From the sequence record KX130863: DNA of 64,000 nucleotides; one strand, given 5' to 3'. The position numbers and the translations under genes were made by a program. Each line of letters opens with the position of its first letter. The first letter of the stretch is position 1. Positions 1,633-59,350 of the stretch are shown piece after piece. This DNA is from Shigella phage SHSML-45. Under the pieces are notes generated by a model. The model did no database searches. It saw only the letters and a program-made list of their open reading frames with translations, and had not been told where the DNA came from.

Positions 1633-2172
1633 TTACTTGTTAAGCTCTTCTAAATCTGGTATATATCCAAGAAACTCCTCAATTAAAGCGTACTCCCCAG
1701 CAATCTCCTGTCTAGACTTATTTGCTAAGTCTACTGCCAGAGCTAAGTCTTCATAATTGAAAGTTCCTTTCATACGTTTTCGGCCTGTTTCATCCGTAAT
1801 TTGAACTCTCCATTTCTGCCTATCTTTAGCCCACATAACATTTGCATATCCAGATTTGGACTTTCTATGCTTCTTATTACGACAATTTTGTGGTTTAGAT
1901 GCAGAACGTAAGTTTTTCCATCGGTTATTTTGTGGATTTCTATCTATGTGATCCACAAATTCAGGTATATATCCTTCCATATATAGGAAGGCCCATCTAT
2001 GGGCTCCCTGCCTCTCCCCTTCCACCATTATCATTATGTAATCATTGTTGTATAGAGTTCCAGCTTCCATTCCCCTCTTTACATACTGATTATTACCATC
2101 TATCTTCCAGGTAAATATCCCGGTTTCTGGGTTATATTCTAGTAATTCTTTTAGTCTTTCTTGAGTAATCAC
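1633..2172 (-). CDS. HNH homing endonuclease (HNH plus AP2-like domain)
   Basis: MITQERLKELLEYNPETGIFTWK...AHRWAFLYMEGYIPEFVDHIDRNPQNNRWKNLR; paralogous to nine other ORFs in the window. Confidence 0.8.
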   Translation of the reverse strand: MITQERLKELLEYNPETGIFTWKIDGNNQYVKRGMEAGTLYNNDYIMIMVEGERQGAHRWAFLYMEGYIPEFVDHIDRNPQNNRWKNLRSASKPQNCRNKKHRKSKSGYANVMWAKDRQKWRVQITDETGRKRMKGTFNYEDLALAVDLANKSRQEIAGEYALIEEFLGYIPDLEELNK

Positions 2173-2573
2173 AATTTATTAATGGCCTCTAAGAAGTTTT
2201 TCATGCACTTAACAGTTGCGGTGCTCAGATCAAGATTTACACCCAAACACTCGGTTAATGCTTCCTGATAAGGAGCCTTTAATCTGCCTTCTGGGACTTC
2301 TACCTTCTTATATTCTTTATTTTTGACCTTTTTAATCATAGTCTCTAGTACAAGAAGCGGTAATTTAGCACCTTCAATATCAGTACCCAAAAGTTCAGTT
2401 AAAATTTTATTAAGATCAAGACGAGTTAACTTTTTGCCCTTAGACATAGTAGTTCCTGCCTTCTTCTCAAGTTTTTTACGCTCTGGTGAATCGAGGTCAC
2501 GTAATGCGATGTTCAACTCATATGGAGCCATGTTATAATGTTCCGCCATTTGAGTGTAGAAACGATCAGACAT
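2169..2573 (-). CDS. hypothetical protein (134 aa)
   Basis: ORF; its start overlaps the stop of the downstream HNH gene by 4 nt. Confidence 0.4.
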   Translation of the reverse strand: MSDRFYTQMAEHYNMAPYELNIALRDLDSPERKKLEKKAGTTMSKGKKLTRLDLNKILTELLGTDIEGAKLPLLVLETMIKKVKNKEYKKVEVPEGRLKAPYQEALTECLGVNLDLSTATVKCMKNFLEAINKL

Positions 2574-2648
2574 AATATATACCTCTCTTAACTAATTTAT
2601 GTATATATTATATAATAACTAGGGCTAAAAGTCAACTACTTTTTTATC

Positions 2649-3065
2649 TTAATCTACTACATGTATAAATCTTTTCCTAACTAGATACATAGTTATTGGG
2701 TAAATTGAGTACATAAGTATCGGGGAGAAAAGGGTGAAATACGCTGTAACTCCCCCAGCTAACATCAAAGGTATTAATGCTAGAGTAAGGGCCATAAGAA
2801 TCATACCGAATGAAACAGCCAAAGCTATGGATATAGGATTCTCTAGTTCCATCCATAACCAACAATATTTCGTATCTCTATGGCAATTGCATTTACAAAC
2901 GCCGAATGAACCCATAATTATATACTCTAGTCCGTGAATAACCTTTATTAATAAGCTATTTCGGGTAGTTAATGCAAGGATAGTAAAGACTATCATTAAA
3001 ACGAATACTACTAGACTTATTTTCCAGATACCTAGCAGCATCATAGTGAATAGTTCTGCAAACAT
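2649..3065 (-). CDS. multi-pass membrane protein, possibly lysis-associated
   Basis: Several hydrophobic segments; lies immediately downstream of the endolysin gene. Confidence 0.35.
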   Translation of the reverse strand: MFAELFTMMLLGIWKISLVVFVLMIVFTILALTTRNSLLIKVIHGLEYIIMGSFGVCKCNCHRDTKYCWLWMELENPISIALAVSFGMILMALTLALIPLMLAGGVTAYFTLFSPILMYSIYPITMYLVRKRFIHVVD

Positions 3066-5727: not shown

Positions 5728-6080
5728 TAATCTTTCCTATTGTTAATGGGTGGATAGTAAATTAAGCAACGTTTTTCTTGTAAATCTTGGCGATAAAAGC
5801 AAACCATACTAGTCAATCGTGAGATATATGAATATTCTGCCTCGCGGCATTTTGCCAACATATTCCAATCTTTATATGGTACGACTACTACTACGCCATC
5901 CTCCCCATTTGTAGCTAATTTCTTTTCGAATTTGAAATCAAAGCTACAAGGTTGAAGTCCTTTAGGCCAGTCCACATGAGCTGTTGGTAGTTCATGGGTA
6001 GGTTCTGGCTTTATTTCTTGTGCACAGCCTGTGATTGTGATTGCGGCTGCGAGCAGTATTCCAAGTTTTATTTTGTGCAT
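5727..6080 (-). CDS. lipoprotein
   Basis: Signal peptide with lipobox LAAAITITGC. Confidence 0.5.
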   Translation of the reverse strand: MHKIKLGILLAAAITITGCAQEIKPEPTHELPTAHVDWPKGLQPCSFDFKFEKKLATNGEDGVVVVVPYKDWNMLAKCREAEYSYISRLTSMVCFYRQDLQEKRCLIYYPPINNRKD

Positions 6081-6766
6081 CTACGCACCTCATAATGTGT
6101 TTCTATGTATTGTTCCACTTCTACTGGAGAAACATTGAAAAACTCTGTACTTCCACTAAACCCCCCATAACTGCATCTTTTATTTTTATAGACACTATGT
6201 AGGTCAGCTTCGATCTTAGCTGTTTCTTCCTTAGAACCCTTGCCACAAATATAGTAAGATGATACTCTCAGATCTTTAAAACCACTACAAGACTTAACTT
6301 CTAGAAGTCTTTTCTGCACACTCTTACTTATACCTATTTTTATGCCTTTATCTGAAACAAATATGTATAAAAATCCTTGTGTATCCCAAGCTGTTTTGGC
6401 ACAATTTGGGCACCCACTATGGTGTAAAACGTGGTTAGTGGTTGTCTCCCACTGATGGGAACATGTATTACATAAAAACTTTAGCTTAGAAGTAGAATTA
6501 GTATATTCACTTAGTAATACGATTTTTCTAGGACTGAGGAGTGAGTTAATCCTGTCTTTGGTTAACTTTTCATTGCCTGCACATTTTGGGCATCCTCTAC
6601 CTTTATTTCTGACATTTGTAGGGGCTGTTAACCATGTATTAGAGCATATAAGACACTTAAATTGTGTCTTTGTCTTATTATGTTCATATTCCCCTACTAA
6701 TCTTACTGTCCTACCTTGAGCTTCTAAATCTTTATTAAAGATTTCTTTATTTATTTTTACGCTCAT
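6068..6766 (-). CDS. Zn-ribbon repeat protein with GIY-YIG-like (T5orf172-type) C-terminal domain
   Basis: Three CxxC...CPxC repeats followed by GFLYIFVSDKGIKIGIS; paralog of 31953..32816. Confidence 0.5.
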   Translation of the reverse strand: MSVKINKEIFNKDLEAQGRTVRLVGEYEHNKTKTQFKCLICSNTWLTAPTNVRNKGRGCPKCAGNEKLTKDRINSLLSPRKIVLLSEYTNSTSKLKFLCNTCSHQWETTTNHVLHHSGCPNCAKTAWDTQGFLYIFVSDKGIKIGISKSVQKRLLEVKSCSGFKDLRVSSYYICGKGSKEETAKIEADLHSVYKNKRCSYGGFSGSTEFFNVSPVEVEQYIETHYEVRRCTK

Positions 6767-7852: not shown

Positions 7853-8368
7853 TTATCCTCTAAATCCCTCGTAAATAGCAAATTCACCAAAATACTCGAA
7901 TCTTAACTCATTAGCAGTTTCTACTGCTTCTTTAAGATCACTAAAGATTCCGCCATAGATTGTTTTTCTATCTTTAGTAACAGAAACTTGCCACTTATTA
8001 GCTCTTTTATTCCAACTTACATTTTTGTAACCTGAAGTATTATTAGAGTACTTTGACTTATTGGCATTATTCTGTGATTCAGTAGACTCCCTCAAGTTAT
8101 CCCAAACATTATTTGTTGGGTTAATATCTTTATGGTCTATGTTTTCTGGTATATAACCTTTCTTATATAGAAAGGCTAACTGATGAGCATAGTAAGGTTT
8201 TCCATCAATTCTTATAGAAATATACCCATTGGATTTTCCACCAGCTAAACATCCAGCATGTCTGGCATTCCATGCATTATCTAACTCTTTTCTGAACTTC
8301 CACCTAAAATTTCCAATATGTTCATCATACTCCAGAATACTTTTTAGGTATTCTTGTGTTAATTCCAT
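7853..8368 (-). CDS. HNH homing endonuclease
   Basis: AHQLAFLYKKGYIPENIDHKDINPTNNVWDNLRE...YKNVSWNKRANKWQV; paralog family. Confidence 0.75.
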   Translation of the reverse strand: MELTQEYLKSILEYDEHIGNFRWKFRKELDNAWNARHAGCLAGGKSNGYISIRIDGKPYYAHQLAFLYKKGYIPENIDHKDINPTNNVWDNLRESTESQNNANKSKYSNNTSGYKNVSWNKRANKWQVSVTKDRKTIYGGIFSDLKEAVETANELRFEYFGEFAIYEGFRG

Positions 8369-11820: not shown

Positions 11821-11896
11821 TGGTAGTTAGTAGTGGATTTGAACCACTGTAGTCGCTCCGTATGAAGGAGGTGCATAACCACTCTGCCAACTAACT
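11821..11896 (-). tRNA. tRNA, anticodon CAT (Met, fMet or Ile2)
   Basis: Hand fold: acceptor AGTTAGT/ACTAACT, anticodon loop TTCATAC, T-arm GGTTCAAATCC, encoded CCA. Confidence 0.6.
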
Positions 11897-11992
11897 ATTA
11901 TGTTTTACTAGGCTAAGTAAGTATTCTTTATACTCTTTAGACCAACTAGCTTTTTTAAACTTTCCTGGACGCATAGCCTTAATTCCTAGATT

Positions 11993-12069
11993 TGGTACTC
12001 CGGGAGGGATTTAAACCCCCGATCTCTCGGTTATCAGCCGAGTGCTTTAGATCGCTAAGCTACCGAAGC
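11993..12069 (-). tRNA. tRNA-Ile (GAT)
   Basis: Acceptor GCTTCGG, anticodon arm CTCGG-CTGATAA-CCGAG, encoded CCA. Confidence 0.7.
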
Positions 12070-12084
12070 ATTAAAATATTTACA

Positions 12085-12375
12085 TCACACACTGTCTAAG
12101 TAAGAAGTATAGTGGAATTTAGTTTCTCCAGTATTATCTACTTCTACCTCAGTTCGTGGTACTTGACGAACCACACCATGAATCATCTTATATCGGATGC
12201 CTCTAGCTGGTTCATGATCTTTTGGAAATACTTGTTTAACCGTCACTACTTTATATTCTTCACGCGGTGTTAGCACTACTACTTGATCACCCTCTTTGAT
12301 TTTCCAAGAAGATGGAAATTCATAGGTGTATCTTTGACCACCGGTAAGGAATATAACAGAAAGATAACGTTTCAT
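12085..12375 (-). CDS. hypothetical protein (96 aa)
   Basis: ORF between tRNA genes with its own promoter-like motif upstream. Confidence 0.4.
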   Translation of the reverse strand: MKRYLSVIFLTGGQRYTYEFPSSWKIKEGDQVVVLTPREEYKVVTVKQVFPKDHEPARGIRYKMIHGVVRQVPRTEVEVDNTGETKFHYTSYLDSV

Positions 12376-12452
12376 TTGGTTTCCCTCTCATTAATTTATA
12401 TAAATATTATAGCAATAAATAAGAGAGAAAGCAAATGAGTTTTTCTTGAAAT

Positions 12453-12527
12453 TGGTAGCGGGTTCCAGTACTGCCCTGGACTTACTTAGCTTATGAGACT
12501 AAGAAGAACTCTATGCCTCCCACCCGC
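12453..12527 (-). tRNA. tRNA-like, anticodon CAT, non-canonical T-loop
   Basis: Anticodon arm TTAGT-CTCATAA-GCTAA folds, but the T-loop (GGCAGTA) and acceptor pairing are imperfect. Confidence 0.35.
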
Positions 12528-12535
12528 AATTGTTT

Positions 12536-12660
12536 GGTCATTCTAGGCAGGACTCGAACCTGCTATCACTTGTGCGGACTTACGAGAACCATTCTTTCAC
12601 TCGAATCGAACGAGCTTCTGCCCTCGCCAAGTTGGTTTCCCCATCAACCACGCTAGAATG
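12536..12660 (-). ncRNA. tRNA-like or structured RNA region (two T-arm-like motifs)
   Basis: GCAGG-TTCGAGT-CCTGC and GCTCG-TTCGATT-CGAGT T-arm-like hairpins in an ORF-free stretch; I could not fold a complete cloverleaf by hand. Confidence 0.3.
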
Positions 12661-12781
12661 TTAGATTGTTTTCAGTGCAAGAGTCCGAGTCTTGGACACG
12701 ACCGCTTCGCAAGTACATAGGCAGCTTATCATGAGTCAGCACTTCCGAATTGCTAGCTCCGTGTTCTGCACTGAAATTCTG

Positions 12782-13129
12782 TTAGTTTAATCGTAAAGTA
12801 TTATCTACTTCACCATTAATTGTTCGGCATTCCTCTGGGATTGCCGGGGTGGCCTTGTATTCCCACCACTCAGCACCATCATATTCCCCACGTTCTAGCC
12901 AAGTTCCATCGGCAAACCATACATTACCATAAAGTAATTGTCCACCGTATCCAGAATCATATTCAAAGTCTAGGTTATTAAGAAAATCCTCAATGTATTC
13001 TTCTGTATAACCTAAAGGTAATACCCAAACTTTTTTATCCCCATAATACCCGAATTCTATTTTAATACACTTAACTTTAGAATTGGTATTTTTTAAGGCG
13101 AGTAACAGCTCTTCTTTAGCATTACGCAT
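12782..13129 (-). CDS. hypothetical protein (115 aa)
   Basis: ORF, W/Y-rich. Confidence 0.4.
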   Translation of the reverse strand: MRNAKEELLLALKNTNSKVKCIKIEFGYYGDKKVWVLPLGYTEEYIEDFLNNLDFEYDSGYGGQLLYGNVWFADGTWLERGEYDGAEWWEYKATPAIPEECRTINGEVDNTLRLN

Positions 13130-13153
13130 AGTATATTCTCATACTGAATTATT

Positions 13154-13231
13154 TTGGCGCGACCGATGGGATTTGAACCCACATTCCCTCCCGTGACAGG
13201 GGAGTACCATTACCAAGCCAGCCCCGGTCGC
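13154..13231 (-). tRNA. tRNA-Asp (GTC)
   Basis: Acceptor GCGACCG, anticodon arm CTCCC-CTGTCAC-GGGAG, T-arm GGTTCAAATCC, encoded CCA. Confidence 0.7.
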
Positions 13232-13240
13232 ATAATTTAT

Positions 13241-13426
13241 TTACTCAGCTTTGAGTTTTTCAATAGCTGCATTAAGTTCTTTAAGAAACTCTTTTCGTAC
13301 ATTAAGACGATTGAGACTTACTAGTATATCATGTTTAAGTTCTTCGATGTATTTCTTCTCAACTTCAATATTGTTGATAGTGCTATCACGATGAACTTCT
13401 AGCTGCGCAATCACATTCTTGGACAT
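13241..13426 (-). CDS. small coiled-coil protein (61 aa)
   Basis: ORF. Confidence 0.3.
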   Translation of the reverse strand: MSKNVIAQLEVHRDSTINNIEVEKKYIEELKHDILVSLNRLNVRKEFLKELNAAIEKLKAE

Positions 13427-13453
13427 GCTTGTTTCCTCAGTTATTAATGAAAA

Positions 13454-13526
13454 TGGTATCTGTGGCTGAATTCGATGTCAGCAATGATAGCTGGTTGGCT
13501 ACCGGTTTACTTAACTCTACACAGAA
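13454..13526 (-). tRNA. tRNA-like (anticodon unresolved)
   Basis: Canonical 3' half (GCTGA-CATCGAA-TCAGC T-arm, acceptor, CCA) but the anticodon arm folds with a 6-nt loop. Confidence 0.35.
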
Positions 13527-13528
13527 TT

Positions 13529-13611
13529 TGGCGGGCCGTGTAGGATTCGAACCTACGTTGTCTTTCGACACGGATTAACAATCCGCCGCCAAACCGCTTG
13601 GCTAACGACCC
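13529..13611 (-). tRNA. tRNA with anticodon GTT (Asn) and an extended variable arm
   Basis: Acceptor GGGTCGT/ACGGCCC, anticodon arm GCGGA-TTGTTAA-TCCGT, 13-nt variable region, T-arm GTAGG-TTCGAAT-CCTAC, CCA. Confidence 0.5.
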
Positions 13612-13763
13612 TAAATTTATATTGCTGACTAGGATTTTCACCTAGACGGAGTTAGCACCGTAGCGTGTAGCGGCATACCTCTCCAAACCGTGCCTCATCT
13701 TTCAATTACGGAGACAGTGTTCCTACGCGTGCCTGAATTGATTTAACAATTCTTTCAGCAAAT

Positions 13764-13839
13764 TGGACGACCGCATGAGATTTGAACTCACATAAAAAGG
13801 ATTTGCAATCCTTCGCCTAAGCCATTCAGCCAACGGTCG
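13764..13839 (-). tRNA. tRNA-Cys (GCA)
   Basis: Anticodon arm AAGGA-TTGCAAA-TCCTT, T-arm GGTTCAAATC, CCA. Confidence 0.7.
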
Positions 13840-14017
13840 ATCTATCTTGTTTTTCGAGATCTTCAAATTCTAGATCATTGAAGTTCCCTAGAGTACGGGT
13901 GTAGAACCTATCTCCTGAGTCATAGCCTGATTTACCACAATCATACATTTTAAATTCACGAAGAGGTGTGAAAATGTGTTCAGAACCACAACACTTAAAT
14001 CTAACTAATCGTTTCAT
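13826..14017 (-). CDS. small protein (63 aa)
   Basis: ORF; its 3' end overlaps the tRNA-Cys call, so one of the two is misplaced. Confidence 0.25.
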   Translation of the reverse strand: MKRLVRFKCCGSEHIFTPLREFKMYDCGKSGYDSGDRFYTRTLGNFNDLEFEDLEKQDRSTVG

Positions 14018-14066
14018 TAGCTTCTCCAGTTCAATTTATGTAATTATTATATAGAACTTTTGGAAA

Positions 14067-14345
14067 CTAAGCGACTACATTTTTTAAGAATTTGATGCCT
14101 TTCTTTTTCTTCTTATATTTCCACGTTAATGGATTTTGTCGATTATGAGCGCTTGAGATCTTTGTCTCGTCAAAGTTCTTCAATATCATGTAATCACAGG
14201 ATAATTGTTCTAGTGGAATGTGATCACCGTCAAAAGCGTATACATAAGGCTGTTGACTAGCACGATAATGATAGACTTTGTTAATTCTACGTTTCAGCGA
14301 CTTATCCGCGCAGTAAATAAAGAAGTTTTCAGGATGCATCAGCAT
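14067..14345 (-). CDS. hypothetical protein (92 aa)
   Basis: ORF. Confidence 0.4.
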   Translation of the reverse strand: MLMHPENFFIYCADKSLKRRINKVYHYRASQQPYVYAFDGDHIPLEQLSCDYMILKNFDETKISSAHNRQNPLTWKYKKKKKGIKFLKNVVA

Positions 14346-14356
14346 CTACTTCAATT

Positions 14357-14440
14357 TGGTGCATCGTGATGGATTTGAACCACCAACCCCGAAGGGCACG
14401 GATTTACAGACCGCTGCAATAGACATTCTGCCAACGATGC
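14357..14440 (-). tRNA. tRNA-Tyr (GTA), class II
   Basis: Anticodon loop CTGTAAA identical to E. coli tRNA-Tyr, long variable arm GCCCTTCGGGG, T-arm GGTGG-TTCAAAT-CCATC, CCA. Confidence 0.65.
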
Positions 14441-14568
14441 ACATTTAAAAGTATTCAAATACTAGTTTAAACACTTTTAAATATGTTTCCAAATTAGATA
14501 ACTATTATACCAAGTTTTAAGGCACTGAGCAAGTCAAATTTCGAAGAACTTGCTCAGTGCTGTATTAG

Positions 14569-14844
14569 TTAGTCGAACTTAGGAGTGACAGTTAAGGAGA
14601 ACGGAAGTTCAAAAACTTCTTCCCCCTCATTACTAACTGTAACTACACGACCTTTAAGTTCAGACATTAAAATATCAATATCAGCTTTTGCATCTGGAGC
14701 CATGCCAGCTTCAACACATTTAGCTTTAACTTCCGGAAGGAGTTCTACATCGTAGAAATAAAGCCATTCAATCTCACCTTCCCAGCCTTCCCAGGATTTA
14801 CAGATTGCACTTTCAATACCAGTTGCTATAACACGATTTTGCAT
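14569..14844 (-). CDS. hypothetical protein (91 aa)
   Basis: ORF. Confidence 0.4.
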   Translation of the reverse strand: MQNRVIATGIESAICKSWEGWEGEIEWLYFYDVELLPEVKAKCVEAGMAPDAKADIDILMSELKGRVVTVSNEGEEVFELPFSLTVTPKFD

Positions 14845-14934
14845 TCGTTAACTCCTTCATCAATTTATATAACTATTATATCAGAAATTTAAAGTAAAAG
14901 GCAAGTACATTTTTAAAAATTCTATTCGGAGGAG

Positions 14935-15141
14935 CTAAACTCCAGATTCTTCGGCCAAGTCTAGACTAATAAGAGTTATAGCCATAATTGCCGCACCATG
15001 TTCTTTTTCCCCGGTGTTTTTAGCAGAGTCTATAATATCCTTAATCTGTTCGTAATAACTTTTTACTTCTTGTTCAATACCTGCCTCGGCTATCATGCCT
15101 TTAGTCATGATTCGTTGCATAGTAATTTCACGGTTAGCCAT
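14935..15141 (-). CDS. hypothetical protein (68 aa)
   Basis: ORF; a possible unlisted 39-codon ORF (15133-15249) overlaps its start in an ATGGCTAA arrangement. Confidence 0.35.
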   Translation of the reverse strand: MANREITMQRIMTKGMIAEAGIEQEVKSYYEQIKDIIDSAKNTGEKEHGAAIMAITLISLDLAEESGV

Positions 15142-15316
15142 GATGTTTCTCCAGCTTCATTTTTAATAGTTTACAAATGAAGTCAACGTCTTCATCTGTG
15201 CCTAGATCTCTATCTTCAAGAGTTGCCTTGAAGTTTTTCGTTAGTTCCATAAGAACTACTTCTCTAGAACGACGTGTTGGCGGGGGTGGATGTCTATACA
15301 TCTTATTTCCTTAATT

Positions 15317-15391
15317 TGGTGGGTCGGAGGAGAATCTAACTCCTACTCGTTAGCTTATGAGGCCACCGCTTTAACTTTAAGCTACCGACCC
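15317..15391 (-). tRNA. tRNA, anticodon CAT (Met-type)
   Basis: Acceptor GGGTCGG/CCGACCC, anticodon loop CTCATAA, encoded CCA; T-loop is non-canonical (TTAGATT). Confidence 0.5.
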
Positions 15392-45695: not shown

Positions 45696-45724
45696 AAGGA
45701 GAACTTCGGTTCTCCTTTCTTGTA
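45696..45724 (+). terminator. rho-independent terminator
   Basis: aaggagaac-ttcg-gttctcctt hairpin followed by TCTTGTAT. Confidence 0.5.
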
Positions 45725-45741: not shown

Positions 45742-46323
45742 ATGGGGGAGATTACCCAGCAGTATCTTAAAACATTATTAAGATATGAGCCTGATACTGG
45801 AAATTTTTACTGGCTACCTAGAGAAAATAATCCTGCGTTCAATGCTAAGCACGCTAACAAACCTGCAGGCTATATGCATTCATCAGGCTATATTTATATA
45901 AAGATAACCTTAGAGTCAGGTATACAAAAATCTATGGGAGCACATAGGTGGGCCTTTCTATATATGGAAGGAGAAATCCCTGACAAGGTTGATCATAAAA
46001 ATAGAATTAAAACTGATAATACTTGGAATAACTTACGTGAAGTTACTTCCTCTCAAAATTCCGCTAATAGCTTTATAGGTAACAAGCTAGGCATTCGTAA
46101 CATAGAAGTAACAAAAAATAACACATTTAAAGTAACCATATCTAAAAACTCCAAAGTATTTAGAAAAACCCTAAAAACTCTAGGAGAAGCTCTGTGGTAT
46201 AGAGATAAGCTGCTTTTAGCCTTGTACGGAGATTTCGCAGCCCTAGATGCTCTAGATATAGAGAGGGTTAAACCGCAGAATATAGTGGATAACTTTACAG
46301 AGGAGTTGCTAGATAATGTTTAA
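45742..46323 (+). CDS. HNH homing endonuclease
   Basis: AHRWAFLYMEGEIPDKVDHKNRIKTDNTWNNLRE; between the ligase/DNA-binding genes and the helicase. Confidence 0.75.
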   Translation: MGEITQQYLKTLLRYEPDTGNFYWLPRENNPAFNAKHANKPAGYMHSSGYIYIKITLESGIQKSMGAHRWAFLYMEGEIPDKVDHKNRIKTDNTWNNLREVTSSQNSANSFIGNKLGIRNIEVTKNNTFKVTISKNSKVFRKTLKTLGEALWYRDKLLLALYGDFAALDALDIERVKPQNIVDNFTEELLDNV

Positions 46324-47782
46324 CGTGCAAGCTGTAGTGTTGAAGATGCTTCTAGCTTCCGAACAGAAGCAAATAGCATTGGAAACATTCTCAAAACTGC
46401 ATAAAGATCATTTTAATGACGCTTTCTCCTCAATTTACCAAGCCGTCCAGAATTATTATAAAAAATATAACACAATGCCGTCCATTGACGCACTGATGCT
46501 TGAGGCTAATAGGAACGCCCGCCTTTCTCAAGCTCTAGTCGTCTTAGCTAACACTCAAATTCCAGAAGTGAGCATGGAACAGGCACTTGAAGTCCTAGAA
46601 GCCGAATATACACAGGATTTATTCCTGAAGCTTCTAGAAACAGACGTGCTTCAAGATTTAACAATGCTGGATCAGGGAGAAATTCTCAACCGAGTTGCCT
46701 CCCTTCACTTAAAATTAGAAGAGAAAGTAACGAATACTGGAAAAGTATTCAACGCAGACACAATGCGTATTTTCCAGAGAGAAGAAGATACCAAACTGAA
46801 CTTGATCGCTCTTGGTATTTGTAATGAGTTCGACGCTCAAATTGGTTTAGCTCGCACAGAAACGTTACTGCTTGGTGGTTGGCGTGGTACTGGTAAATCC
46901 ATTATCTGTTCAAACATACAGGTTCAGCAATATTTGAATGGAGATATTGCTCCATACTTCTCAATTGAGATGAAAGAACATGAAGTATTTAGACGTAATC
47001 TAGCCATGTTAGCTGGTGTATCAGCACTAGCAATGCGTAATAATACTCTAGAAGGTGCAGCTCTGTTGAGATTAGCCAGAACTAGAGCTAGGATGTTTAA
47101 TGGTGGTGAAGAGCTTTTCGATAACTTCGTTAAACAGTACACAATGGCTAAGATGAGTGATTTCTACGATATGGAAAGTAAGCTAATAGAAGGGTATGAA
47201 CTACATACTCCTATGATTATTGTTTATGATCCTGAGCTGTCTATTACAACAGTTGACGTAGAATTAAATAAATTAGTTGCTAGATATGGGGATAAAGTTA
47301 CAGTAGCTTTACTGGACTATATTAACCAAACCCGACTTCCAGACTCTAAAACCATTGATATGTATGACTGGAAAGAACAGATGGTTGTTAGCTCGTCTTT
47401 CAAATCTATCTGCCAGAAACATAACGTGGCTGGTGTAGCTCCTTACCAGATTGATCAAGATGGTAGAACACGTATGTCAAAAGGGATTCTTGATTCCGCA
47501 GACATGGCTGCTAATCTTAATGCTGCAAAAGCTGATAATGGTCAAGGTGCTATTATGTTTGACTTCGTTAAGACCCGTTCTTCTGATAGCGTGAAGTTTA
47601 TGCCTAAAATGAACTGGGAAACCCTGCGGATGGATAACACTACCAACCTAGCAATGGAAGATATATCTCAAATGGAAGCTGAGTTCGTTATCCCTATTGA
47701 GAAGGATAAGCCAGCTCAATCTAAACGTGCTAAGAAAGACAAAGCTGAAAATTCAACAGGTGAACAGGCCAGCGATATATGA
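46316..47782 (+). CDS. replicative DNA helicase (DnaB-like)
   Basis: Walker A LLGGWRGTGKSI; 488 aa; immediately upstream of the primase. Confidence 0.55.
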   Translation: MFNVQAVVLKMLLASEQKQIALETFSKLHKDHFNDAFSSIYQAVQNYYKKYNTMPSIDALMLEANRNARLSQALVVLANTQIPEVSMEQALEVLEAEYTQDLFLKLLETDVLQDLTMLDQGEILNRVASLHLKLEEKVTNTGKVFNADTMRIFQREEDTKLNLIALGICNEFDAQIGLARTETLLLGGWRGTGKSIICSNIQVQQYLNGDIAPYFSIEMKEHEVFRRNLAMLAGVSALAMRNNTLEGAALLRLARTRARMFNGGEELFDNFVKQYTMAKMSDFYDMESKLIEGYELHTPMIIVYDPELSITTVDVELNKLVARYGDKVTVALLDYINQTRLPDSKTIDMYDWKEQMVVSSSFKSICQKHNVAGVAPYQIDQDGRTRMSKGILDSADMAANLNAAKADNGQGAIMFDFVKTRSSDSVKFMPKMNWETLRMDNTTNLAMEDISQMEAEFVIPIEKDKPAQSKRAKKDKAENSTGEQASDI

Positions 47783-48312
47783 TAACACAGGAACGACTAA
47801 AAGAACTGTTTGACTACTCCCCAGAGACTGGGGAGTTTATTAGAAAAGTATCTAGAGGCAACCAGAAAGCCGGGAGTATAGTAACTAGAAAGGATTCAAA
47901 CGGTTATATAATTATCGGTATAGATGGTAGGGATTATAAAGCCCATCGTATGGCCTTCCTATTTATGGAAAACACGTTACCTGAAAAAGTAGACCATATA
48001 AACCGTATACGAAGTGATAATCGATGGTGTAATCTAAGAGACGCCACAGCCCAGGAAAATAGTAGAAATAAAACCGCATGTAGTAAGTCTGGATATTTGG
48101 GAGTTGCTTGGGATATAGAAAAACAAAGATGGAGAGTTCAAGTAAGAGACTCTAATAGCACTCTTAAAAATGGTGGCAGATTTAAGTATGAAGAGCTAGA
48201 GCTAGCTGTAAATTCAGCAAATATATTAAGGACTAAGTTACATGGAGAACGTGCTGTTATAGAATTTTTTGATACATCTAATTATCCTTCACTGGAGGAG
48301 TTAAATTCATGA
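47779..48312 (+). CDS. HNH homing endonuclease
   Basis: AHRMAFLFMENTLPEKVDHINRIRSDNRWCNLRD; inserted between helicase and primase. Confidence 0.8.
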   Translation: MITQERLKELFDYSPETGEFIRKVSRGNQKAGSIVTRKDSNGYIIIGIDGRDYKAHRMAFLFMENTLPEKVDHINRIRSDNRWCNLRDATAQENSRNKTACSKSGYLGVAWDIEKQRWRVQVRDSNSTLKNGGRFKYEELELAVNSANILRTKLHGERAVIEFFDTSNYPSLEELNS

Positions 48313-49199
48313 GTAGAATAACAGAGTTACTTGATCTAAAAGGAATTGAGTACAAGGATACAGGCGGGGATATTCTTATATGCTGCCTGAATCCTGAACA
48401 CGAGGATAAACACCCAAGTTTGCGTATTGATCCTGAAACCGGGATTATGCACTGCTTGAGTTGCGGTTTTGGCAAAGGTATACCTAGTATTTATCATTAT
48501 TTTAATGAGACTCAATATAGACAATCTCCAAGACTATCCCAAGTACGTAAAAAAATTTCTGAGATTAGAAATGGATCTACGAATCTTGCAATCCCAGAAT
48601 CTGCTTTTCTTTTTGAAGGTGATTTCCGAGGTATCAGTTCTAAGACCTTAAAGAAATATTTTGCTTTCCAACACCAAGAGGACTGGGAAGGCAGAATTGT
48701 ATTCCCAATCACAGATGCTGTTGGACGCAATATCCTATTTTTGGGTCGTTCTATAAACAGTTCTGCCCCTCCTAAATACTTAGTAAAACCAAAACAAGTT
48801 TCACCACCAATTTTTCCTGTACGATATAATACTCCAGTTCTTATTCTAGTTGAAGGCATCTTTGATATGCTGAACCTAGAGGATAATGGTATAGACTATG
48901 CTTCTTGCTGCTTTGGTACACATCAGTTTACTTCGGATAACATTGCTGATAAGTTCAGTCCTTACATTATTGCTGGAGTAAGAGTAGTTGTTATCTTGCT
49001 AGATAATGATGCCTCTGGTAATAAAGCTGCTCAAGCACTAGCGAAGCTAATTCGTACAAAAACACGTTTAACACCTGTAGTTGGTAACTTCCTTCTTCCA
49101 GAAGGTAAAGACCCAGGTGATTTAAATAAAGAAGAGATCGATATGTTGGCTCAACGTATTGAAATTTTAGTTGCCGAATCGCTCAAAGATTTGGTATAA
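48309..49199 (+). CDS. DNA primase (DnaG-like zinc finger plus Toprim)
   Basis: Zinc finger CCLNPEHEDKHPSLRIDPETGIMHCLSCG; Toprim acidic motifs LVEGIFDMLNL and VVILLDNDASG. Confidence 0.75.
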   Translation: MSRITELLDLKGIEYKDTGGDILICCLNPEHEDKHPSLRIDPETGIMHCLSCGFGKGIPSIYHYFNETQYRQSPRLSQVRKKISEIRNGSTNLAIPESAFLFEGDFRGISSKTLKKYFAFQHQEDWEGRIVFPITDAVGRNILFLGRSINSSAPPKYLVKPKQVSPPIFPVRYNTPVLILVEGIFDMLNLEDNGIDYASCCFGTHQFTSDNIADKFSPYIIAGVRVVVILLDNDASGNKAAQALAKLIRTKTRLTPVVGNFLLPEGKDPGDLNKEEIDMLAQRIEILVAESLKDLV

Positions 49200-52319: not shown

Positions 52320-53662
52320 AGGTTGTTATATCTAATAAAGCCTATTTCAAGCCCGATGATGAACTTTGGGATTATTGTAGTAAGCAAACCACTTATCATG
52401 TAGAGACAATGACAAGTAAATACCCTATTATGTATAAGAATAGTGGTGTTGTTGCTAAAGAGATTAAGTGGATTCCCATTACTCGTCTAGATTTACTAGA
52501 TGCTAAAGGAATAAAATACGAATTAGTCGATAAACGCACATTAGCTCCGGTAGATATACCAGAACCGTCGTTTAAACTGCGTGAAGAAGATCAGCTTCCA
52601 ATATACGAAGAATGCGATGATACCTGTATTATTAATGGTAAGCCTGGGTTTGGTAAAACTATCCTAGCACTAGCACTTGCGTATAAATTTGGTCAGAAAA
52701 CTTTGGTAATCTGTACGAATACATCCATTCGTGAAATGTGGGCGGCAGAAGTTCGTAAATGGTTTGGGTTTGAACCAGGTATCATAGGTTCTGGGAAATA
52801 TAATATTGATCCACCAATTGTGGTTAGTAATATTCAAACAGTGAATAAACATGCGAATAATCTTTCTAAAGTATTCGGTACTGTTATAGTTGATGAAGTT
52901 CACCATTGTGTGGCTACAACTTTCACTAACTTCCTAGAAATATCATGTGCTCGCTATAAAATTGGACTATCCGGTACACTAAAACGAAAAGATGGTTTAC
53001 AAGTTATGTTCAAAGATTTCTTTGGATATAAGATATTTAGCCCACCGGTTAATAATACTGTTGCACCTACAATCCATAGGTACTCCGTGCCTGTTGAGCT
53101 ATCAGGAAACCAAAACGTACCGTGGGCATTACGTGCTAACGATGTGTATAACCATCCTGAATACCGAGAGACTATTATAAACCTAGCACATCTATATGTG
53201 AATATGGGGCATAAAGTACTCATTCTAAGTGATAGAACAGAGTTAATCCAAACAGTACTAGAAGCTCTTGCACAGCGTGGTGTTACAACCTATGAGATTA
53301 TAGGTGCAACTCCTTTGGATGATCGATTGAGAATCCAGAAAGATGTAGCGGAGGGCGGACCTTGTGTACTTGCAGCAGCTCAGAGTATCTTCTCAGAAGG
53401 TATTTCTCTTAACGAGCTATCTTGTTTAATAATGGGAAGTCTCATTAATAATGAATCTCTCATAGAACAGCTAGCAGGTCGCGTTCAACGTATTGTTGAC
53501 GGAAAGCTAGATCCGATTGTTGTAGATTTAATTATGAAAGGAGGTACTGGTTTAAGACAGGCTTCTGGACGTATGGCCGTGTATCGCAATAACGCGTGGA
53601 AAGTAATCACAATGACCCCTGAGAAAGCTGTGAGATTAGCACAAGAAATATTTAAAACTTGA
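52316..53662 (+). CDS. SF2 helicase (DEAH-type)
   Basis: Walker A NGKPGFGKT, Walker B VIVDEVHHC. Confidence 0.7.
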   Translation: MKVVISNKAYFKPDDELWDYCSKQTTYHVETMTSKYPIMYKNSGVVAKEIKWIPITRLDLLDAKGIKYELVDKRTLAPVDIPEPSFKLREEDQLPIYEECDDTCIINGKPGFGKTILALALAYKFGQKTLVICTNTSIREMWAAEVRKWFGFEPGIIGSGKYNIDPPIVVSNIQTVNKHANNLSKVFGTVIVDEVHHCVATTFTNFLEISCARYKIGLSGTLKRKDGLQVMFKDFFGYKIFSPPVNNTVAPTIHRYSVPVELSGNQNVPWALRANDVYNHPEYRETIINLAHLYVNMGHKVLILSDRTELIQTVLEALAQRGVTTYEIIGATPLDDRLRIQKDVAEGGPCVLAAAQSIFSEGISLNELSCLIMGSLINNESLIEQLAGRVQRIVDGKLDPIVVDLIMKGGTGLRQASGRMAVYRNNAWKVITMTPEKAVRLAQEIFKT

Positions 53663-53663: not shown

Positions 53664-54197
53664 ATGATAACTCAACAAAGATTAAAAGAATTACTAATAT
53701 ATGATCCAGATTCTGGCCACTTTATTAACAAGGTGTCCAGGGGCAGAGGAGGTAAAATTGGGGCTATTGCTGGAAGTCCTGATAAAGATGGATATATAAT
53801 CATAGGTATAGATAGGAAATCTTATAAAGCCCATCGCTTAGCCTTCTTGTACATGGAAGGCTATATGCCTACTGAAGTAGACCACGATAATAGAATACCT
53901 TATGATAATAAATGGAGTAACTTAAAAGATTCTTCTCATTCGGAAAATATGAAAAACCGTAACCCTTATAGTAAATCTGGTTATAAAGGAGTTACGTGGA
54001 ATAAGGTTAAGAAGAAATGGCAAGTACAAGTGTGTAGGTCAGATGGTTCTACAGTTTATGGTGGGTTATTCCCTTATGAAGAATTAGAGTTAGCTATAAA
54101 TAAAGCTAACGAACTTAGAGCACAGCATCTAGGTATGGATTCCAGGCAAGAACTATTCAAAGGATATATTTGCCGACGTGAGGACTTAGATAAGTAA
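53664..54197 (+). CDS. HNH homing endonuclease
   Basis: AHRLAFLYMEGYMPTEVDHDNRIPYDNKWSNLKD. Confidence 0.8.
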   Translation: MITQQRLKELLIYDPDSGHFINKVSRGRGGKIGAIAGSPDKDGYIIIGIDRKSYKAHRLAFLYMEGYMPTEVDHDNRIPYDNKWSNLKDSSHSENMKNRNPYSKSGYKGVTWNKVKKKWQVQVCRSDGSTVYGGLFPYEELELAINKANELRAQHLGMDSRQELFKGYICRREDLDK

Positions 54198-55491: not shown

Positions 55492-55500
55492 TAAACCAAG

Positions 55501-55526
55501 GGGAGCTACGGCTCCCTTTCTTTTTA
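55501..55526 (+). terminator. rho-independent terminator
   Basis: gggagc-tacg-gctccc hairpin followed by TTTCTTTTT. Confidence 0.55.
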
Positions 55527-55530: not shown

Positions 55531-56061
55531 ATGAGAAATAAGCTATATTCCTTATTTTTGGAAGACCCTAAAAAATTCATTTTATTAGTAAATAAATTCA
55601 GAGAAAGATTTTCCTATGATCCTGAGTCCGGGCTACTCTCTAGGGAAATAGGAACGGGTGGTCAGTTACCAGGATCTATAGTAGGCACGGATAATGGAAA
55701 AGGATATTTAAGAACCTCATTTAATAAGGAGCAGTATCTTGTACATTTAATTATTTATGCCATGCAGACTAATGAAATGGCAGAAGTAGTAGATCACAAA
55801 GACTTAGATAAGAAGAATAATAGATGGAGTAATCTAAGACCAACTAATAAATCAGGTAATGAAAGAAACACAAGCGTAAGATCTAATAGTACCACAGGTG
55901 TTAAAAATGTATATTGGATACCTGGGAGACATAAGTATAGGGTTCAGTTTAAAATCCACGGAGAAACAAAATACTTTGGATATTATGATACTATTCAAGA
56001 AGCAGAAGTAGTAGCTGATAGGGAACGTAGGCGACTACACGGAGAATTTGCCAGATCATGA
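55531..56061 (+). CDS. HNH homing endonuclease (divergent member)
   Basis: VHLIIYAMQTNEMAEVVDHKDLDKKNNRWSNLR...YWIPGRHKYRVQ. Confidence 0.65.
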   Translation: MRNKLYSLFLEDPKKFILLVNKFRERFSYDPESGLLSREIGTGGQLPGSIVGTDNGKGYLRTSFNKEQYLVHLIIYAMQTNEMAEVVDHKDLDKKNNRWSNLRPTNKSGNERNTSVRSNSTTGVKNVYWIPGRHKYRVQFKIHGETKYFGYYDTIQEAEVVADRERRRLHGEFARS

Positions 56062-57035
56062 AAATACTATTTAGTGCTGATCACCATATAAAACTTGGGC
56101 AAGATAAAATTCCCAAAGAATGGCAGAAGAAAAGATTCTTAATGCTGGGAGACCGTCTAAATGATATATTCCATAATCATAACTGTGATTTGCATATTAT
56201 TGGTGGTGATTTATTTGATCATTCCGACCCGTCGTCGGAAGAAGTAGAACTTCTAGAAAAATTTATGTCTAGGCTAGATCATATAGGAATGGTATTTACA
56301 GGTAATCATGAATTAATAACTAAAACGATTTCATGTCTATACCATTATGCAGGAGTTATTAATAAAGTAACAAATGGAAATTGGGAAGTAATTACCAAAC
56401 CATATCGTTCCCCTGAATTTGATATTGTTCCGTATGATGAGATCCATAAATCCAAATGGAAACCGTCTGAATCAAAACTATGTTTCACGCATGTTCGTGG
56501 TGAAATCCCTCCACATGTAAAACCAGAAATTGATCTAACTAAGTATAACTGTTATGATACTGTAATTGCTGGCGATTTACATTCTTATACTAATAGCCAG
56601 ACTATCGGATCTACTAGACTTCTCTACCCAGGGTCTCCATTAACTACATCGTTCCATAGAGAACGCACAAAAGGTACAAATGGTTGCTTTATCGTTGATA
56701 CCGACACATTAAAAGTAGAATGGATTGAACTAGGTGATTTACCACAACTGATTCGTAAAACAATCGGAGCCGGTGAAGAGATGGAACCTAGTGATTATGA
56801 TCGTGTAGTCTATGAAGTTACTGGTGACGTTGTTCAATTAAAGTCAATCAAAGACTCTGATTTATTAGATAAGAAGATTAACCATCGAGTTACTAAAGAC
56901 GCTAAGTTAAATCTTGTCGATCTCGATATGTTAGGTGAACTTGAACTTTACTTCCGTGAAGTCGAGAAGCTATCTCAAGGCGACATTGATAGAATCTTAG
57001 CTAGAGCTGCTAAATATGTCAAAGATTATAATTAA
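56058..57035 (+). CDS. SbcD/Mre11-like recombination nuclease
   Basis: Metallophosphatase motifs ILFSADHH, IIGGDLFDH, FTGNHE. Confidence 0.75.
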   Translation: MKILFSADHHIKLGQDKIPKEWQKKRFLMLGDRLNDIFHNHNCDLHIIGGDLFDHSDPSSEEVELLEKFMSRLDHIGMVFTGNHELITKTISCLYHYAGVINKVTNGNWEVITKPYRSPEFDIVPYDEIHKSKWKPSESKLCFTHVRGEIPPHVKPEIDLTKYNCYDTVIAGDLHSYTNSQTIGSTRLLYPGSPLTTSFHRERTKGTNGCFIVDTDTLKVEWIELGDLPQLIRKTIGAGEEMEPSDYDRVVYEVTGDVVQLKSIKDSDLLDKKINHRVTKDAKLNLVDLDMLGELELYFREVEKLSQGDIDRILARAAKYVKDYN

Positions 57036-58854
57036 GACACTAAAATTCAGCAACGTTATGTCTTACGGTAAGGATATCGTAATTCATTTCGATAAGAATC
57101 CAGTTACTCAGTTAATCGGAGGAAACGGTCTAGGGAAGTCCACTATTGCTACTGTTATCGAGGAATTGTTCTATAACAAGAACTCACGTGGTATCAAGAA
57201 GGACGCCCTATTCTCTTGGGGTTCTCCGAAGAAAGAGTACGATATGCACGCTTACTTCTCGAAAGATGAAGATGAGTATGAGTTGCATAAAGTAGTTAAA
57301 TCAACTGCTAAGGTTACACTGATTAAGAATGGAGAAGATATCAGTGGACACACAGCAACTCAAACGTATAAGATGATTGAAGAGATTATGGGTGGTGACT
57401 TCCAAACATTCACTAAACTGATCTATCAATCTGTAGGTTCCAATCTAGACTTCCTCAAAGCAACTGATGCGACACGTAAAGCTTTTCTTGTTAATCTGTT
57501 CAATCAGGAACAGTATAAAGAGATGTCAGAAACTATTAAGGCTGATCGTAAAGAAGTGGCAAGTACGTTAAGTAACTTGCAAGGCCAGATGGCCGTAATT
57601 ACGAAGATCCTCAATGGAAAAGGCAATCTCGGAAGTTTACAAGAACCAGTTGAAGTTCCAGAGTTTGATGAAGAACCGTTAGCACAAGAACTTACTGAAT
57701 CGAAAATTAAGGCGGCATTAGCCAAGTCACAAGAGGCTAATATTACTAAACTCCGTAATTTGGACAAAGCTGTACAAGTTGCCGAACAATCTTTCGAGCC
57801 TTTCAAAAATTTCCCTGCGCCCACCGACCAATCTGAAGAGATCTCAAGTGTTACGCGTGACTTAACGATTGTTACCTCACGTGCGGGAGAAGTCAAGAAA
57901 CGTTATCAGAAGTTTAAGCAAGAGGCTTCAAATACTGAATGTCCTACTTGTGGTACGCATCTTGATACAACTGCTGCTCAAAAAGCAATGGATATGGCTA
58001 GAACAGAATATGATCCTCTGTTTAAAGAGAAACAATCTCTCGAAGCTACATTGGAGCAGTTAAAGAAAGAACAACTCGAGTACGCTGCGTATACTAGAGC
58101 TAAGGATGCTTTAGATAAGGCAGTAGCAGCTAGAGACGAGTTCAAAAATTCAATGAGTGATGCTTCTTTTGAAGAACTCAATGTGCAGATCCTACAGGTG
58201 CAAATCCGACAATTAGAACAGGAAATCGCTGATGGCCGTTCTAAAGTTGCAATTGCCAAAGAGCATAATGCAAATGTCGAATTAGCCAATGCAAAATATA
58301 AAGCGAAACTAGAACAGATTGAAAAAGCTGAGGCAGAAATGTCTGAGATAACGTCCAAACTGGATGGAGTATCAGAAGCTGTTGCTGATCTTGATATTCT
58401 GATCGCTGCATTGAAAAATCTGGTAGGATATAAACTAGAGCATAGTGTGAAAGTATTTGAGGAATTGATTAATAAATATCTTTCTATTATGACTGGTGGT
58501 AAGTTCGCACTTGGATTTGAACTTGATGAAACTAAATTACAAGTAGTAATCTTCAATGATGGAAACCGTACCAGTATGGAGAACTGCTCTACTGGTCAGC
58601 AAAGTAGAATTAACCTAGCAACTCTGTTAGCAATTCGAATGCTGTTAACATCTATTAGTAAAGTTAATATTAATCTTCTGTTCCTTGACGAAGTTATTAG
58701 CTTTATTGATACGAAAGGACTTGATACTCTCGTTGAATTATTAAATGAGGAAGATAGTCTGAATTCTATCATTGTTTCTCATGGGCACTCCCATCCGCTG
58801 GCACATAAGATTACTGTCAAAAAAGATGCAGAAGGATTTTCTTACTTAGAATAA
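57016..58854 (+). CDS. SbcC/Rad50-like ATPase
   Basis: Walker A GGNGLGKST, long central coiled coil with CPTCG zinc hook, signature/Walker B region LLFLDEV. Confidence 0.75.
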   Translation: MSKIIIKTLKFSNVMSYGKDIVIHFDKNPVTQLIGGNGLGKSTIATVIEELFYNKNSRGIKKDALFSWGSPKKEYDMHAYFSKDEDEYELHKVVKSTAKVTLIKNGEDISGHTATQTYKMIEEIMGGDFQTFTKLIYQSVGSNLDFLKATDATRKAFLVNLFNQEQYKEMSETIKADRKEVASTLSNLQGQMAVITKILNGKGNLGSLQEPVEVPEFDEEPLAQELTESKIKAALAKSQEANITKLRNLDKAVQVAEQSFEPFKNFPAPTDQSEEISSVTRDLTIVTSRAGEVKKRYQKFKQEASNTECPTCGTHLDTTAAQKAMDMARTEYDPLFKEKQSLEATLEQLKKEQLEYAAYTRAKDALDKAVAARDEFKNSMSDASFEELNVQILQVQIRQLEQEIADGRSKVAIAKEHNANVELANAKYKAKLEQIEKAEAEMSEITSKLDGVSEAVADLDILIAALKNLVGYKLEHSVKVFEELINKYLSIMTGGKFALGFELDETKLQVVIFNDGNRTSMENCSTGQQSRINLATLLAIRMLLTSISKVNINLLFLDEVISFIDTKGLDTLVELLNEEDSLNSIIVSHGHSHPLAHKITVKKDAEGFSYLE

Positions 58855-58858
58855 TAAC

Positions 58859-59350
58859 ATGGTAGATCCAAGAGTAACCCCAGAATACCTATGGGATAGA
58901 TACGAGTATAGAGATGGCACTCTTATCAATAAACATTCAAAAGGCAGAATGAAAGCAGGAGTACCAGCAGGTACTCCTAATAAGGCAGGATACCTAAGAG
59001 TAACATTATTCCAAAAACAAGAGTATATACATAGAATCATATTTTTTATGTTTAATGGTTATTGGCCTAAGGAGATAGATCATATTGATAGAGATAATAC
59101 TAACAATAGGATAGAGAATCTTAGAGAAGCAACAAGATCTCAAAATATGGCTAATCGTATAGGATCAAATAATTTTAGAGGAATCCAATTTAATGGTAGT
59201 AACTACACCGCTAGAATTGGTAATCCTTTTAATAGGAAAACTGAGTATATAGGTAGTTACCCAACCGCCGAGGATGCGGCAAGAGCCTATGATATTAAAG
59301 CAAAAGAATACTTCGGAGATTTCGCAGTATTAAACTTTGGTGAAGATTAA
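58859..59350 (+). CDS. HNH homing endonuclease
   Basis: IHRIIFFMFNGYWPKEIDHIDRDNTNNRIENLRE. Confidence 0.75.
   Translation: MVDPRVTPEYLWDRYEYRDGTLINKHSKGRMKAGVPAGTPNKAGYLRVTLFQKQEYIHRIIFFMFNGYWPKEIDHIDRDNTNNRIENLREATRSQNMANRIGSNNFRGIQFNGSNYTARIGNPFNRKTEYIGSYPTAEDAARAYDIKAKEYFGDFAVLNFGED

Follow-up and report, generated by a model that had tools for sequence, protein, structure and literature searches.

The 64,000-nt stretch of Shigella phage SHSML-45 analysed here (sequence record KX130863; hereafter the window) carries, between positions 1633 and 59350, ten open reading frames (ORFs) that very probably encode site-specific homing endonucleases of the I-HmuI-like HNH_3 class with a C-terminal AP2 domain, in a T5-like phage. 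Membership of this family, intact catalytic residues, presence or absence as cassettes among relatives, fidelity of each lineage to one site, purifying selection and a link to recoded flanking sequences are all observed for these genes. The ten ORFs had been singled out from the letters of the sequence alone in an original prediction, which called them paralogous HNH(-AP2) homing endonuclease genes threaded between essential genes. All of them were found at their listed positions with translations as described, and the density of about one nuclease gene per 6 kb holds (10 in 57.7 kb).

All ten proteins score above the gathering threshold of the Pfam HNH_3 model (PF13392; 31-66 bits against a cutoff of 24.8, E 1.6e-7 to 2.1e-18), with pairwise identities among them of 21-52%. 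Searched against the six-frame translation of the window, a hidden Markov model derived from these proteins finds the ten and only them (E 3e-71 to 1e-46), well outside what chance would give, and no further or degraded copy of the family was detected in that translation with this profile (next match E > 2). Copies lacking the catalytic His or Asn, a concern attached to the original prediction, were not encountered in careful alignment: the D-H pair, the N of NLR and two more Asn are invariant. Residues D72, H73, N85, L86, N94 and N97 (numbering of ORF 47779) are common to all ten proteins, and D72, H73, N85, N94 and N97, the catalytic Asp-His pair and the Asn residues with structural and metal-binding roles, align to D74, H75, N87, N96 and N99 of I-HmuI. 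The core sequence by which the family had been recognized stands as a loose consensus, but it is matched literally in only two of the ten (1633 and 45742). The HNH(-AP2) label itself is upheld by profile and structure comparison. Indeed, positions 41-151 of the family profile match the solved HNH homing endonuclease I-HmuI (PDB 1U3E; E 1.9e-9), with its beta-beta-alpha-metal fold, and positions 105-171 match plant AP2/ERF DNA-binding domains (WRI1 at E 2e-7, also TEM1, ERF096 and AtERF1), which places at family level an AP2 DNA-binding domain C-terminal to the HNH. The architecture indicated by these alignments is an I-HmuI-like N-terminal region followed by HNH and then AP2. In the PHROGs collection, all five copies tested (1633, 19394, 26689, 47779 and 58859) belong to phrog_99, "HNH endonuclease". 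A role as a defence system was considered and rejected, PADLOC having returned only a generic "homing endonuclease" model. AP2-HNH proteins are a described homing endonuclease family (PMC10448857; PMC5714182, where they belong to group 2), and those of phages, cyanobacteria and protists are credited to Magnani et al. 2004, as cited in PMC10448857.

The distribution of the genes among relatives was followed in two samples. In IMG/VR, the homologous regions of 16-29 T5-like genomes per region were retrieved with four anchor genes, and conserved genes and HNH-family ORFs were mapped, an orthologue being counted at an amino acid identity of at least 90%. Frequencies among phage records were obtained with each nuclease gene plus 400-bp flanks as the query against 50,697 records, a carrier being a record with at least 80% coverage. 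Every IMG/VR relative retains the flanking genes in synteny, and each nuclease gene has orthologues in 0-8 of these relatives. The possibility that the insertions are strictly conserved across relatives, also raised against the original prediction, is contradicted by this synteny comparison, in which they are sporadic at every site. Every nuclease gene is a minority allele, found in 1.5-17% of matching phage records (Table 1). Phage T5 itself has orthologues of 26689 (98% amino acid identity) and 47779. At eight of the ten sites, the two flanks of the empty allele meet with a spacing of -20 to +37 bp, and those eight genes are therefore clean cassettes; at 36554, the replaced segment reaches about 100 bp past the ORF on both sides.

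When all HNH-family ORFs of the relatives are clustered at an amino acid identity of at least 80%, they form 33 lineages, each confined to one gene junction. Conversely, several unrelated lineages may use the same junction: at least five are found between thioredoxin and gene 2169, three between nrdB and nrdA, and two between helicase and primase, and an unrelated HNH gene (45% amino acid identity) occupies the SbcC/D14 junction in one relative. The term paralogous applies to the ten at family level only, each copy being 92-100% identical to its site-specific orthologue elsewhere and at most 52% identical to the other copies in its own genome; the ten look like separate acquisitions and not like in-genome duplications. 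Every orthologue allele is intact, and pN/pS pooled over alleles is 0.03-0.18. Some orthologues appeared disrupted, a reading that was rejected since their differences are a stop three codons early at the C-terminus or gaps of codon multiples. The HNH gene at the helicase/primase junction of IMGVR_UViG_2706796127 is a chimera that agrees fully with ORF 47779 over the first ~34 and the last ~12 residues, whereas its middle is only ~60% identical to 47779 and resembles 53664 and 7853. This pattern suggests either that nuclease genes have recombined with one another or that the overlapping ends of helicase and primase constrain the sequence.

A second line of evidence comes from the genes that adjoin the nuclease genes. 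Identity to nuclease-free relatives drops sharply just downstream of the nuclease gene, over ~30-250 nt at the 5' end of the next gene, as seen in thioredoxin, nrdB, primase, gene 54363, SbcD and D14. Divergence over the first 120 nt exceeds that of the remaining gene by 6 points or more in six of nine downstream genes, against three of the 52 others (Mann-Whitney p 0.0018, Fisher p 1e-4; both optimistic as the compared relatives are phylogenetically non-independent). The excess 5' changes are mostly synonymous, and control genes have no 5' excess. In nrdB, 18.5 synonymous codon changes fall in codons 1-60 against 11.3 in codons 61-120; the corresponding counts for the first and the next 60 codons are 26 and 15 synonymous differences in primase, and 27 and 11 changes in D14. 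In thioredoxin, the difference between the first 120 nt and the rest of the gene amounts to -15.3 points. Relatives that carry the nuclease gene share the flank sequence of the window; at SbcD, carriers are 98-100% identical to it and non-carriers 75-86%. The shared sequence includes the 3' end of the D10 helicase upstream of 53664, at which the sole relative with a 53664 orthologue is 100% identical. Under a homing model, the nuclease gene should be bordered by a co-converted, cleavage-resistant tract and the target should lie in the conserved gene next to it; as indirect evidence, the recoding matches this prediction. The recoded tracts are likely to be the target or co-conversion regions of the nuclease genes.

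The arrangement of the genes follows the free-standing pattern of the original prediction for nine separate ORFs, whereas 19394-20215 is an in-frame fusion to a resident cREC gene. The overlaps of 0-4 bp proposed for most of them were likewise found in part, spacing being between -8 and +7 bp on at least one side in eight of the ten and on both sides in 1633, 47779 and 58859 only; ORFs 19394 and 36554 are separated from their neighbours by gaps of 12-656 bp. For the latter ORF, a start at 36500 is possible, and the record of Salmonella phage Shivani, a close relative, uses the equivalent of 36554. Low expression is usual for homing endonuclease genes. In a scan for consensus matches only, the Shine-Dalgarno sequence is weak or without a recognisable match in several copies, with none seen for 55531, and terminator-like hairpins stand directly upstream of 45742 (45696-45717) and 55531 (55498-55519). 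The G+C content of the nuclease genes (0.33-0.37) is lower than the mean of the window (39%; 0.389). Weak Shine-Dalgarno sequences, GTG and TTG starts, upstream hairpins and low G+C would all be consistent with low, read-through expression.

Table 1. Nuclease genes of the window with their orthologues among relatives, and candidate recoded tracts in adjoining genes (percentages are identities)
Feature	Coordinates	Strand	Description	Profile matches	IMG/VR orthologues	Phage-record orthologues
Nuclease gene 1633	1633-2172	-	179 aa, GTG start; HNH-AP2; between hypothetical gene 2169-2573 and thioredoxin 1329-1625	HNH_3 E 1e-13	1/27	11/420
Nuclease gene 7853	7853-8368	-	171 aa; HNH-AP2	HNH_3 E 9.6e-15; weak AP2 E 8e-4	0/27	6/406
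Fusion ORF 19394	19394-20215	-	273 aa; HNH-AP2 module ~19706-20215 and cREC_REC part ~19394-19705	HNH_3 E 6e-11; PF20274 E 1.8e-12	1/16	27/440
Nuclease gene 26689	26689-27213	-	174 aa, TTG start; HNH-AP2; between nrdA and nrdB	HNH_3 E 1.2e-7	4/16	73/434
Nuclease gene 36554	36554-37006	+	150 aa; HNH-AP2; alternative start 36500	HNH_3 E 2.3e-11	3/29	41/523
Nuclease gene 45742	45742-46323	+	193 aa; HNH-AP2; between D5-like gene and replicative helicase	HNH_3 E 5.5e-14	1/29	10/512
Nuclease gene 47779	47779-48312	+	177 aa; HNH-AP2; between helicase and primase, 4-bp overlap with each		8/29	69/437
Nuclease gene 53664	53664-54197	+	177 aa; HNH-AP2; after D10 helicase	HNH_3 E 1e-8; weak AP2	1/29	7/439
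Nuclease gene 55531	55531-56061	+	176 aa; HNH-AP2; between D11 and SbcD (D12)	HNH_3 E 1.6e-7	2/29	27/441
Nuclease gene 58859	58859-59350	+	163 aa; HNH-AP2; between SbcC (D13) and D14	HNH_3 E 2.1e-18	0/29	12/441
Recoded 5' end of thioredoxin	1543-1602	-	72-78% to nuclease-free relatives, 89-98% beyond; candidate tract of 1633			
Recoded 5' end of nrdB	26539-26688	-	72-86% to nuclease-free relatives, 92-99% further in; candidate tract of 26689			
Recoded 5' end of primase	48339-48398	+	69-77% to nuclease-free relatives, ~85-94% beyond; candidate tract of 47779			
Diverged 3' end of D10 helicase, upstream of 53664	53574-53633	+	71-82% to nuclease-free relatives			
Recoded 5' part of SbcD	56122-56301	+	63-90% to nuclease-free relatives, 98-100% to carriers of the nuclease gene; candidate tract of 55531			
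Recoded 5' end of D14	59351-59500	+	64-81% to nuclease-free relatives, 91-96% beyond; candidate tract of 58859			

ORF 19394-20215 has, as alignment with its relatives indicates, an HNH-AP2 module fused in frame to a deeply diverged allele of a core gene encoding a cREC receiver domain. Relatives devoid of the nuclease module have at the same locus a free cREC gene of 103 aa (311 bp) preceded by the same upstream sequence. The module lies in frame between the start position of cREC and the diverged cREC copy, and no start codon is found at the boundary between the two parts of 19394-20215; the fusion ORF appears from this comparison to use the upstream region and the start codon position of cREC. 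In a tblastn search of the phage records, the cREC part is bimodal, with at least 95% identity in 27 records (fused allele) and ~51% in 414 (free allele). There are no intermediate alleles, the flanks of this locus and its homologues (e.g. L059 15320-15632) are 95-99% identical, and the cREC_REC gene is single-copy in every matched T5-like record (442), so that the fused ORF is the only cREC gene of this phage. Searched at full length among 5.8 billion proteins, the fusion architecture occurs in two clusters, of 98% and 76% identity, and the 76% variant has the same synteny as the window. Between the window and this variant, pS reaches 0.71-0.74 (saturated) in both halves with pN of ~0.13, and both the HNH-AP2 and the cREC parts are therefore under purifying selection.

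For this ORF alone, it has to be asked whether the HNH module is an intein in a host protein, as suggested by the public SelmaRatti record, which annotates an "intein-containing hypothetical protein". The module is indeed in frame with a resident cREC gene and absent from most relatives. However, there is no N-extein, the module beginning at most 7 residues from the start codon; the boundary (...EIGKQTN/ILIDD) has no Cys, Ser or Thr at +1, and no His-Asn ends the module; no Hint or intein domain was detected by a Pfam scan; and the C-terminal part is a different allele (~51% identical) instead of the same extein. An intein is thus barely credible here and was rejected on the boundary residues and the missing N-extein, the features that define inteins being absent. 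A bolder joint proposal is put forward tentatively, as a possibility with the balance leaning against it: that 19394-20215 is a non-splicing "gene capture" homing element, in which the nuclease is fused to the start of its own cleavage-resistant core-gene allele, and that 5' synonymous recoding marks the actual cleavage sites.

The mechanism envisaged for the family starts from co-infection with a relative devoid of the nuclease gene in question. At the empty junction or close to it, the enzyme would recognise a long, degenerate site, in most cases probably within the first ~30-250 nt of the gene directly downstream, and would nick or cut it, a nick being converted to a break by replication. 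Enzymes of the I-HmuI type are nickases, whose nick is turned into a break by replication (PMC3017599). Recombinational repair templated by the nuclease-carrying genome would then copy the nuclease gene together with its recoded, cleavage-resistant flank, with the outcome that the nuclease gene and markers close to it would be inherited in a super-Mendelian manner (localized marker exclusion). The idea, part of the original prediction, that the set marks exclusion hot spots in co-infections would be an expected consequence of this mechanism, consistent with the recoded tracts and with the behaviour of the T4 Seg and Mob enzymes (PMC2330249).

Several points weigh against the homing reading. 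For the proteins themselves, cleavage, the exact target sites, the choice between nick and double-strand break, and biased inheritance are inferred from sequence. The flanks of 19394, 36554 and 45742 are without divergence from nuclease-free relatives and give no target-site guess from recoding, and the non-independence of the relatives bears on the recoding statistics. The edges of the patches in which the window diverges from Shivani are not enriched at nuclease genes (four of 44 within 100 bp, 5.5 expected, P 0.8 in a circular-shift test, which is weak as both genomes carry all ten). Mosaic boundaries at nuclease genes, as described by Barth et al. 2023, had looked plausible by eye and were rejected after this test. 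Finally, the ten genes co-occur in the same three to four genomes (Shivani, vB_SLGBLB0002, vB_Sen_SG_WM_RUS_R2 and partly H8), and the pattern is therefore partly vertical inheritance within one clade; among the matches listed, the full-coverage best matches for all ten queries are the first three of these phages only.

This co-occurrence, together with the weak translation signals, would suit a set of inactive relics, formerly mobile and now vertically inherited in the Shivani clade with neither nuclease activity nor drive. Relics are nevertheless unlikely in view of the catalytic residues invariant in 10/10, of the intact orthologue alleles under the low pN/pS given above, of the several orthologues that stand in otherwise divergent backgrounds (e.g. 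47779 and 26689 in T5), and of flanks that are locally common to other carriers of the nuclease gene. Domestication is another conceivable reading: the proteins might introduce the nicks of T5-type virions, degrade host DNA, or help replication or recombination near helicase, primase and SbcCD. Specific single-strand nicks do occur in T5-like DNA (PMC10644984), enzymes of the I-HmuI type nick (PMC3017599), and the genes are located in replication and recombination operons. A conserved function should be conserved, yet each orthologue is limited to the 1.5-17% of related records already mentioned, empty is the commonest state at every junction, and T5 and BF23 are both nicked yet share few of these genes, which makes domestication very unlikely. 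Homing endonuclease genes thus remain the preferred reading of the ten ORFs.

Among known systems, one near class is that of I-HmuI and I-BasI from Bacillus phages SPO1 and Bastille (HNH_3, His-Me finger group 2; PDB 1U3E). Whereas I-HmuI is the product of a group I intron and has a helix-turn-helix at its C-terminus, the ten genes of the window are intron-less ORFs ending in AP2. The IPA-HNH proteins of phage ICP1 (Barth et al. 2023, PMC10448857) have, like the ten, an N-terminal HNH and a C-terminal AP2 and are encoded beside replication and ribonucleotide-reductase genes; their HNH domains are too diverged for Pfam HNH_3, whereas those of the window are canonical HNH_3, the five copies tested falling in phrog_99. 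The free-standing enzymes of T4 (MobE between nrdA and nrdB; SegB, SegF and SegG) are similarly sporadic and located between essential genes, including the same nrdA/nrdB junction. They differ in class from the HNH_3 proteins of the window: Mob enzymes form part of a separate HNH subgroup (group 1, PMC5714182), and those of the Seg type are GIY-YIG. In T4, cleavage and localized marker exclusion have been demonstrated by experiment, whereas in the window they are read from the sequence. A putative target in the neighbouring conserved gene, with co-conversion of flanking markers, is a further point of agreement.

Within the same phage group, T5 encodes F-TflI and F-TflII as well as F-TflIV, HNH site-specific endonucleases regarded as homing, which are compared here by their description (Akulenko et al. 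2004, as cited in PMC10644984 and PMC2330249). Their genes lie in the tRNA region of T5, whereas 26689 and 47779 are orthologues of other T5 HNH genes. The "ShiLan domain", an HNH in a phage methylase (PMC11855218), resembles 19394-20215 as a homing-type HNH in a resident gene that is neither intron nor intein. It differs in that the ShiLan HNH lies in a different frame inside its host gene, whereas the module of 19394-20215 keeps the frame of its gene, occupies the extreme N-terminus and is joined to a ~51% diverged resident allele. According to published work, T5-like genomes differ from one another mainly through their homing endonuclease genes (PMC10644984; compare PMC12639943, PMC3326045 and PMC10448857).

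Sequence similarity places the phage among the Demerecviridae, genus Tequintavirus, in the Shivani lineage. A megablast search with positions 44-60 kb of the window matched 550 phage records, of which Salmonella phage Shivani is the best (98.4% identity over 100% of the query). Genes run leftward to ~31.7 kb and rightward beyond. According to the Shivani annotation, the neighbours comprise thioredoxin, lysis genes, dNMP kinase, a tRNA cluster, thymidylate synthase, DHFR, nrdB, nrdA and nrdD, then an origin-binding protein, a split NAD ligase, the D5-like gene, helicase, primase and DNA polymerase, and then the D10 helicase, D11, SbcD/SbcC (D12/D13), D14, D15 and dUTPase. The ten ORFs are already named "HNH (homing) endonuclease" in that record, with a note "HNH and AP2/ERF" on several. 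The Shivani coding sequences for the orthologues of 53664 and 58859 (at 20511-21044 and 25706-26197 of locus L002, from the Shivani record) carry late starts (333 and 402 bp), which in the former conceals the HNH domain, and the full ORFs of both are intact in Shivani. A reading of these short coding sequences as truncations was rejected in favour of start-site choices.

Between positions 200 and 61000 of the window, the 690 mismatches with Shivani lie almost all within 22 short patches of 2-29% divergence, such as 42973-43748 (ligase A), 25637-26522 (nrdB) and 52507-53275 (D10 helicase), separated by long runs of 100% identity. This patchwork indicates recent patchy recombination, and the best match for some of the patches is another phage (H8, vB_Sen_SG_WM_RUS_R2 or vB_SLGBLB0002). 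In the region 61300-63800, a tail-fibre ORF (61638-63335, minus strand; phrog_6578, E 7e-177) has no nucleotide alignment to Shivani or H8 and is probably a swapped host-range module. ARAGORN predicts ten tRNA genes in 11821-18146, all on the minus strand like the surrounding ORFs, whereas the Shivani record puts its tRNAs on the opposite strand, probably an annotation error in that record. One of the predictions is odd, a tRNA-Ser with anticodon ACT (18073-18146) that is not in the Shivani annotation. The NAD-dependent DNA ligase is split into 42969-43940 (adenylation and OB domains) and 44140-44922 (HhH and BRCT domains), with 199 bp between them. This gap is kept in 29/29 relatives, and the split is therefore a fixed feature of the group and no recent insertion.

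Besides the HNH-AP2 family, the window holds other putative mobile elements. The nrdA gene (27316-30618, minus strand) has a 304-aa in-frame insertion at 28774-29685, beginning with CYSEDTEVLT and ending with ...HTIVCGN before a Ser. The insertion has a weak LAGLIDADG_3 match (E 0.15) and is absent from 16/16 IMG/VR relatives, in which the two flanking parts of nrdA align fully, and the Shivani record notes an "intein splice site" in nrdA. Its most likely identity is that of an intein containing a homing endonuclease domain. ORFs 6068-6766 (minus strand) and 31911-32816 (plus strand) combine CapR and T5orf172/MUG113 domains with a treble-clef zinc finger (phrog_681, "endonuclease"). They are variable among relatives (2/27 and about 4/29), with a homologue at another junction (42226/42573) in L156, and form a second family of putative homing endonuclease genes.

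The phenomenon as such is already known, being annotated in the Shivani record and published for T5-like phages (PMC10644984, PMC10448857), with the same pattern in T4 and ICP1. The present additions are modest: population frequencies, the rule of one lineage at one site, downstream recoding with candidate target tracts, and the HNH-cREC fusion. Of use among them are concrete predictions of where six of the enzymes have their targets, and one case in which a homing endonuclease is fused in frame to a core gene. If 19394-20215 is a gene-capture element, its nuclease gene would be undeletable without losing the core function, a protection like that of inteins and introns with no splicing chemistry. 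If recoding marks cleavage sites, the targets of uncharacterised free-standing homing endonucleases would be readable from population data.

With ten genes of the HNH-AP2 type, two of the T5orf172 type and a probable nrdA intein around its most essential genes of replication and nucleotide metabolism in 64 kb, a T5-like phage can bear a heavy load of selfish nuclease genes, each a minority allele in the phage population. T5-like phages serve in cocktails for phage therapy and biocontrol, and mixed infections there would favour nuclease-linked markers and reshape genomes.

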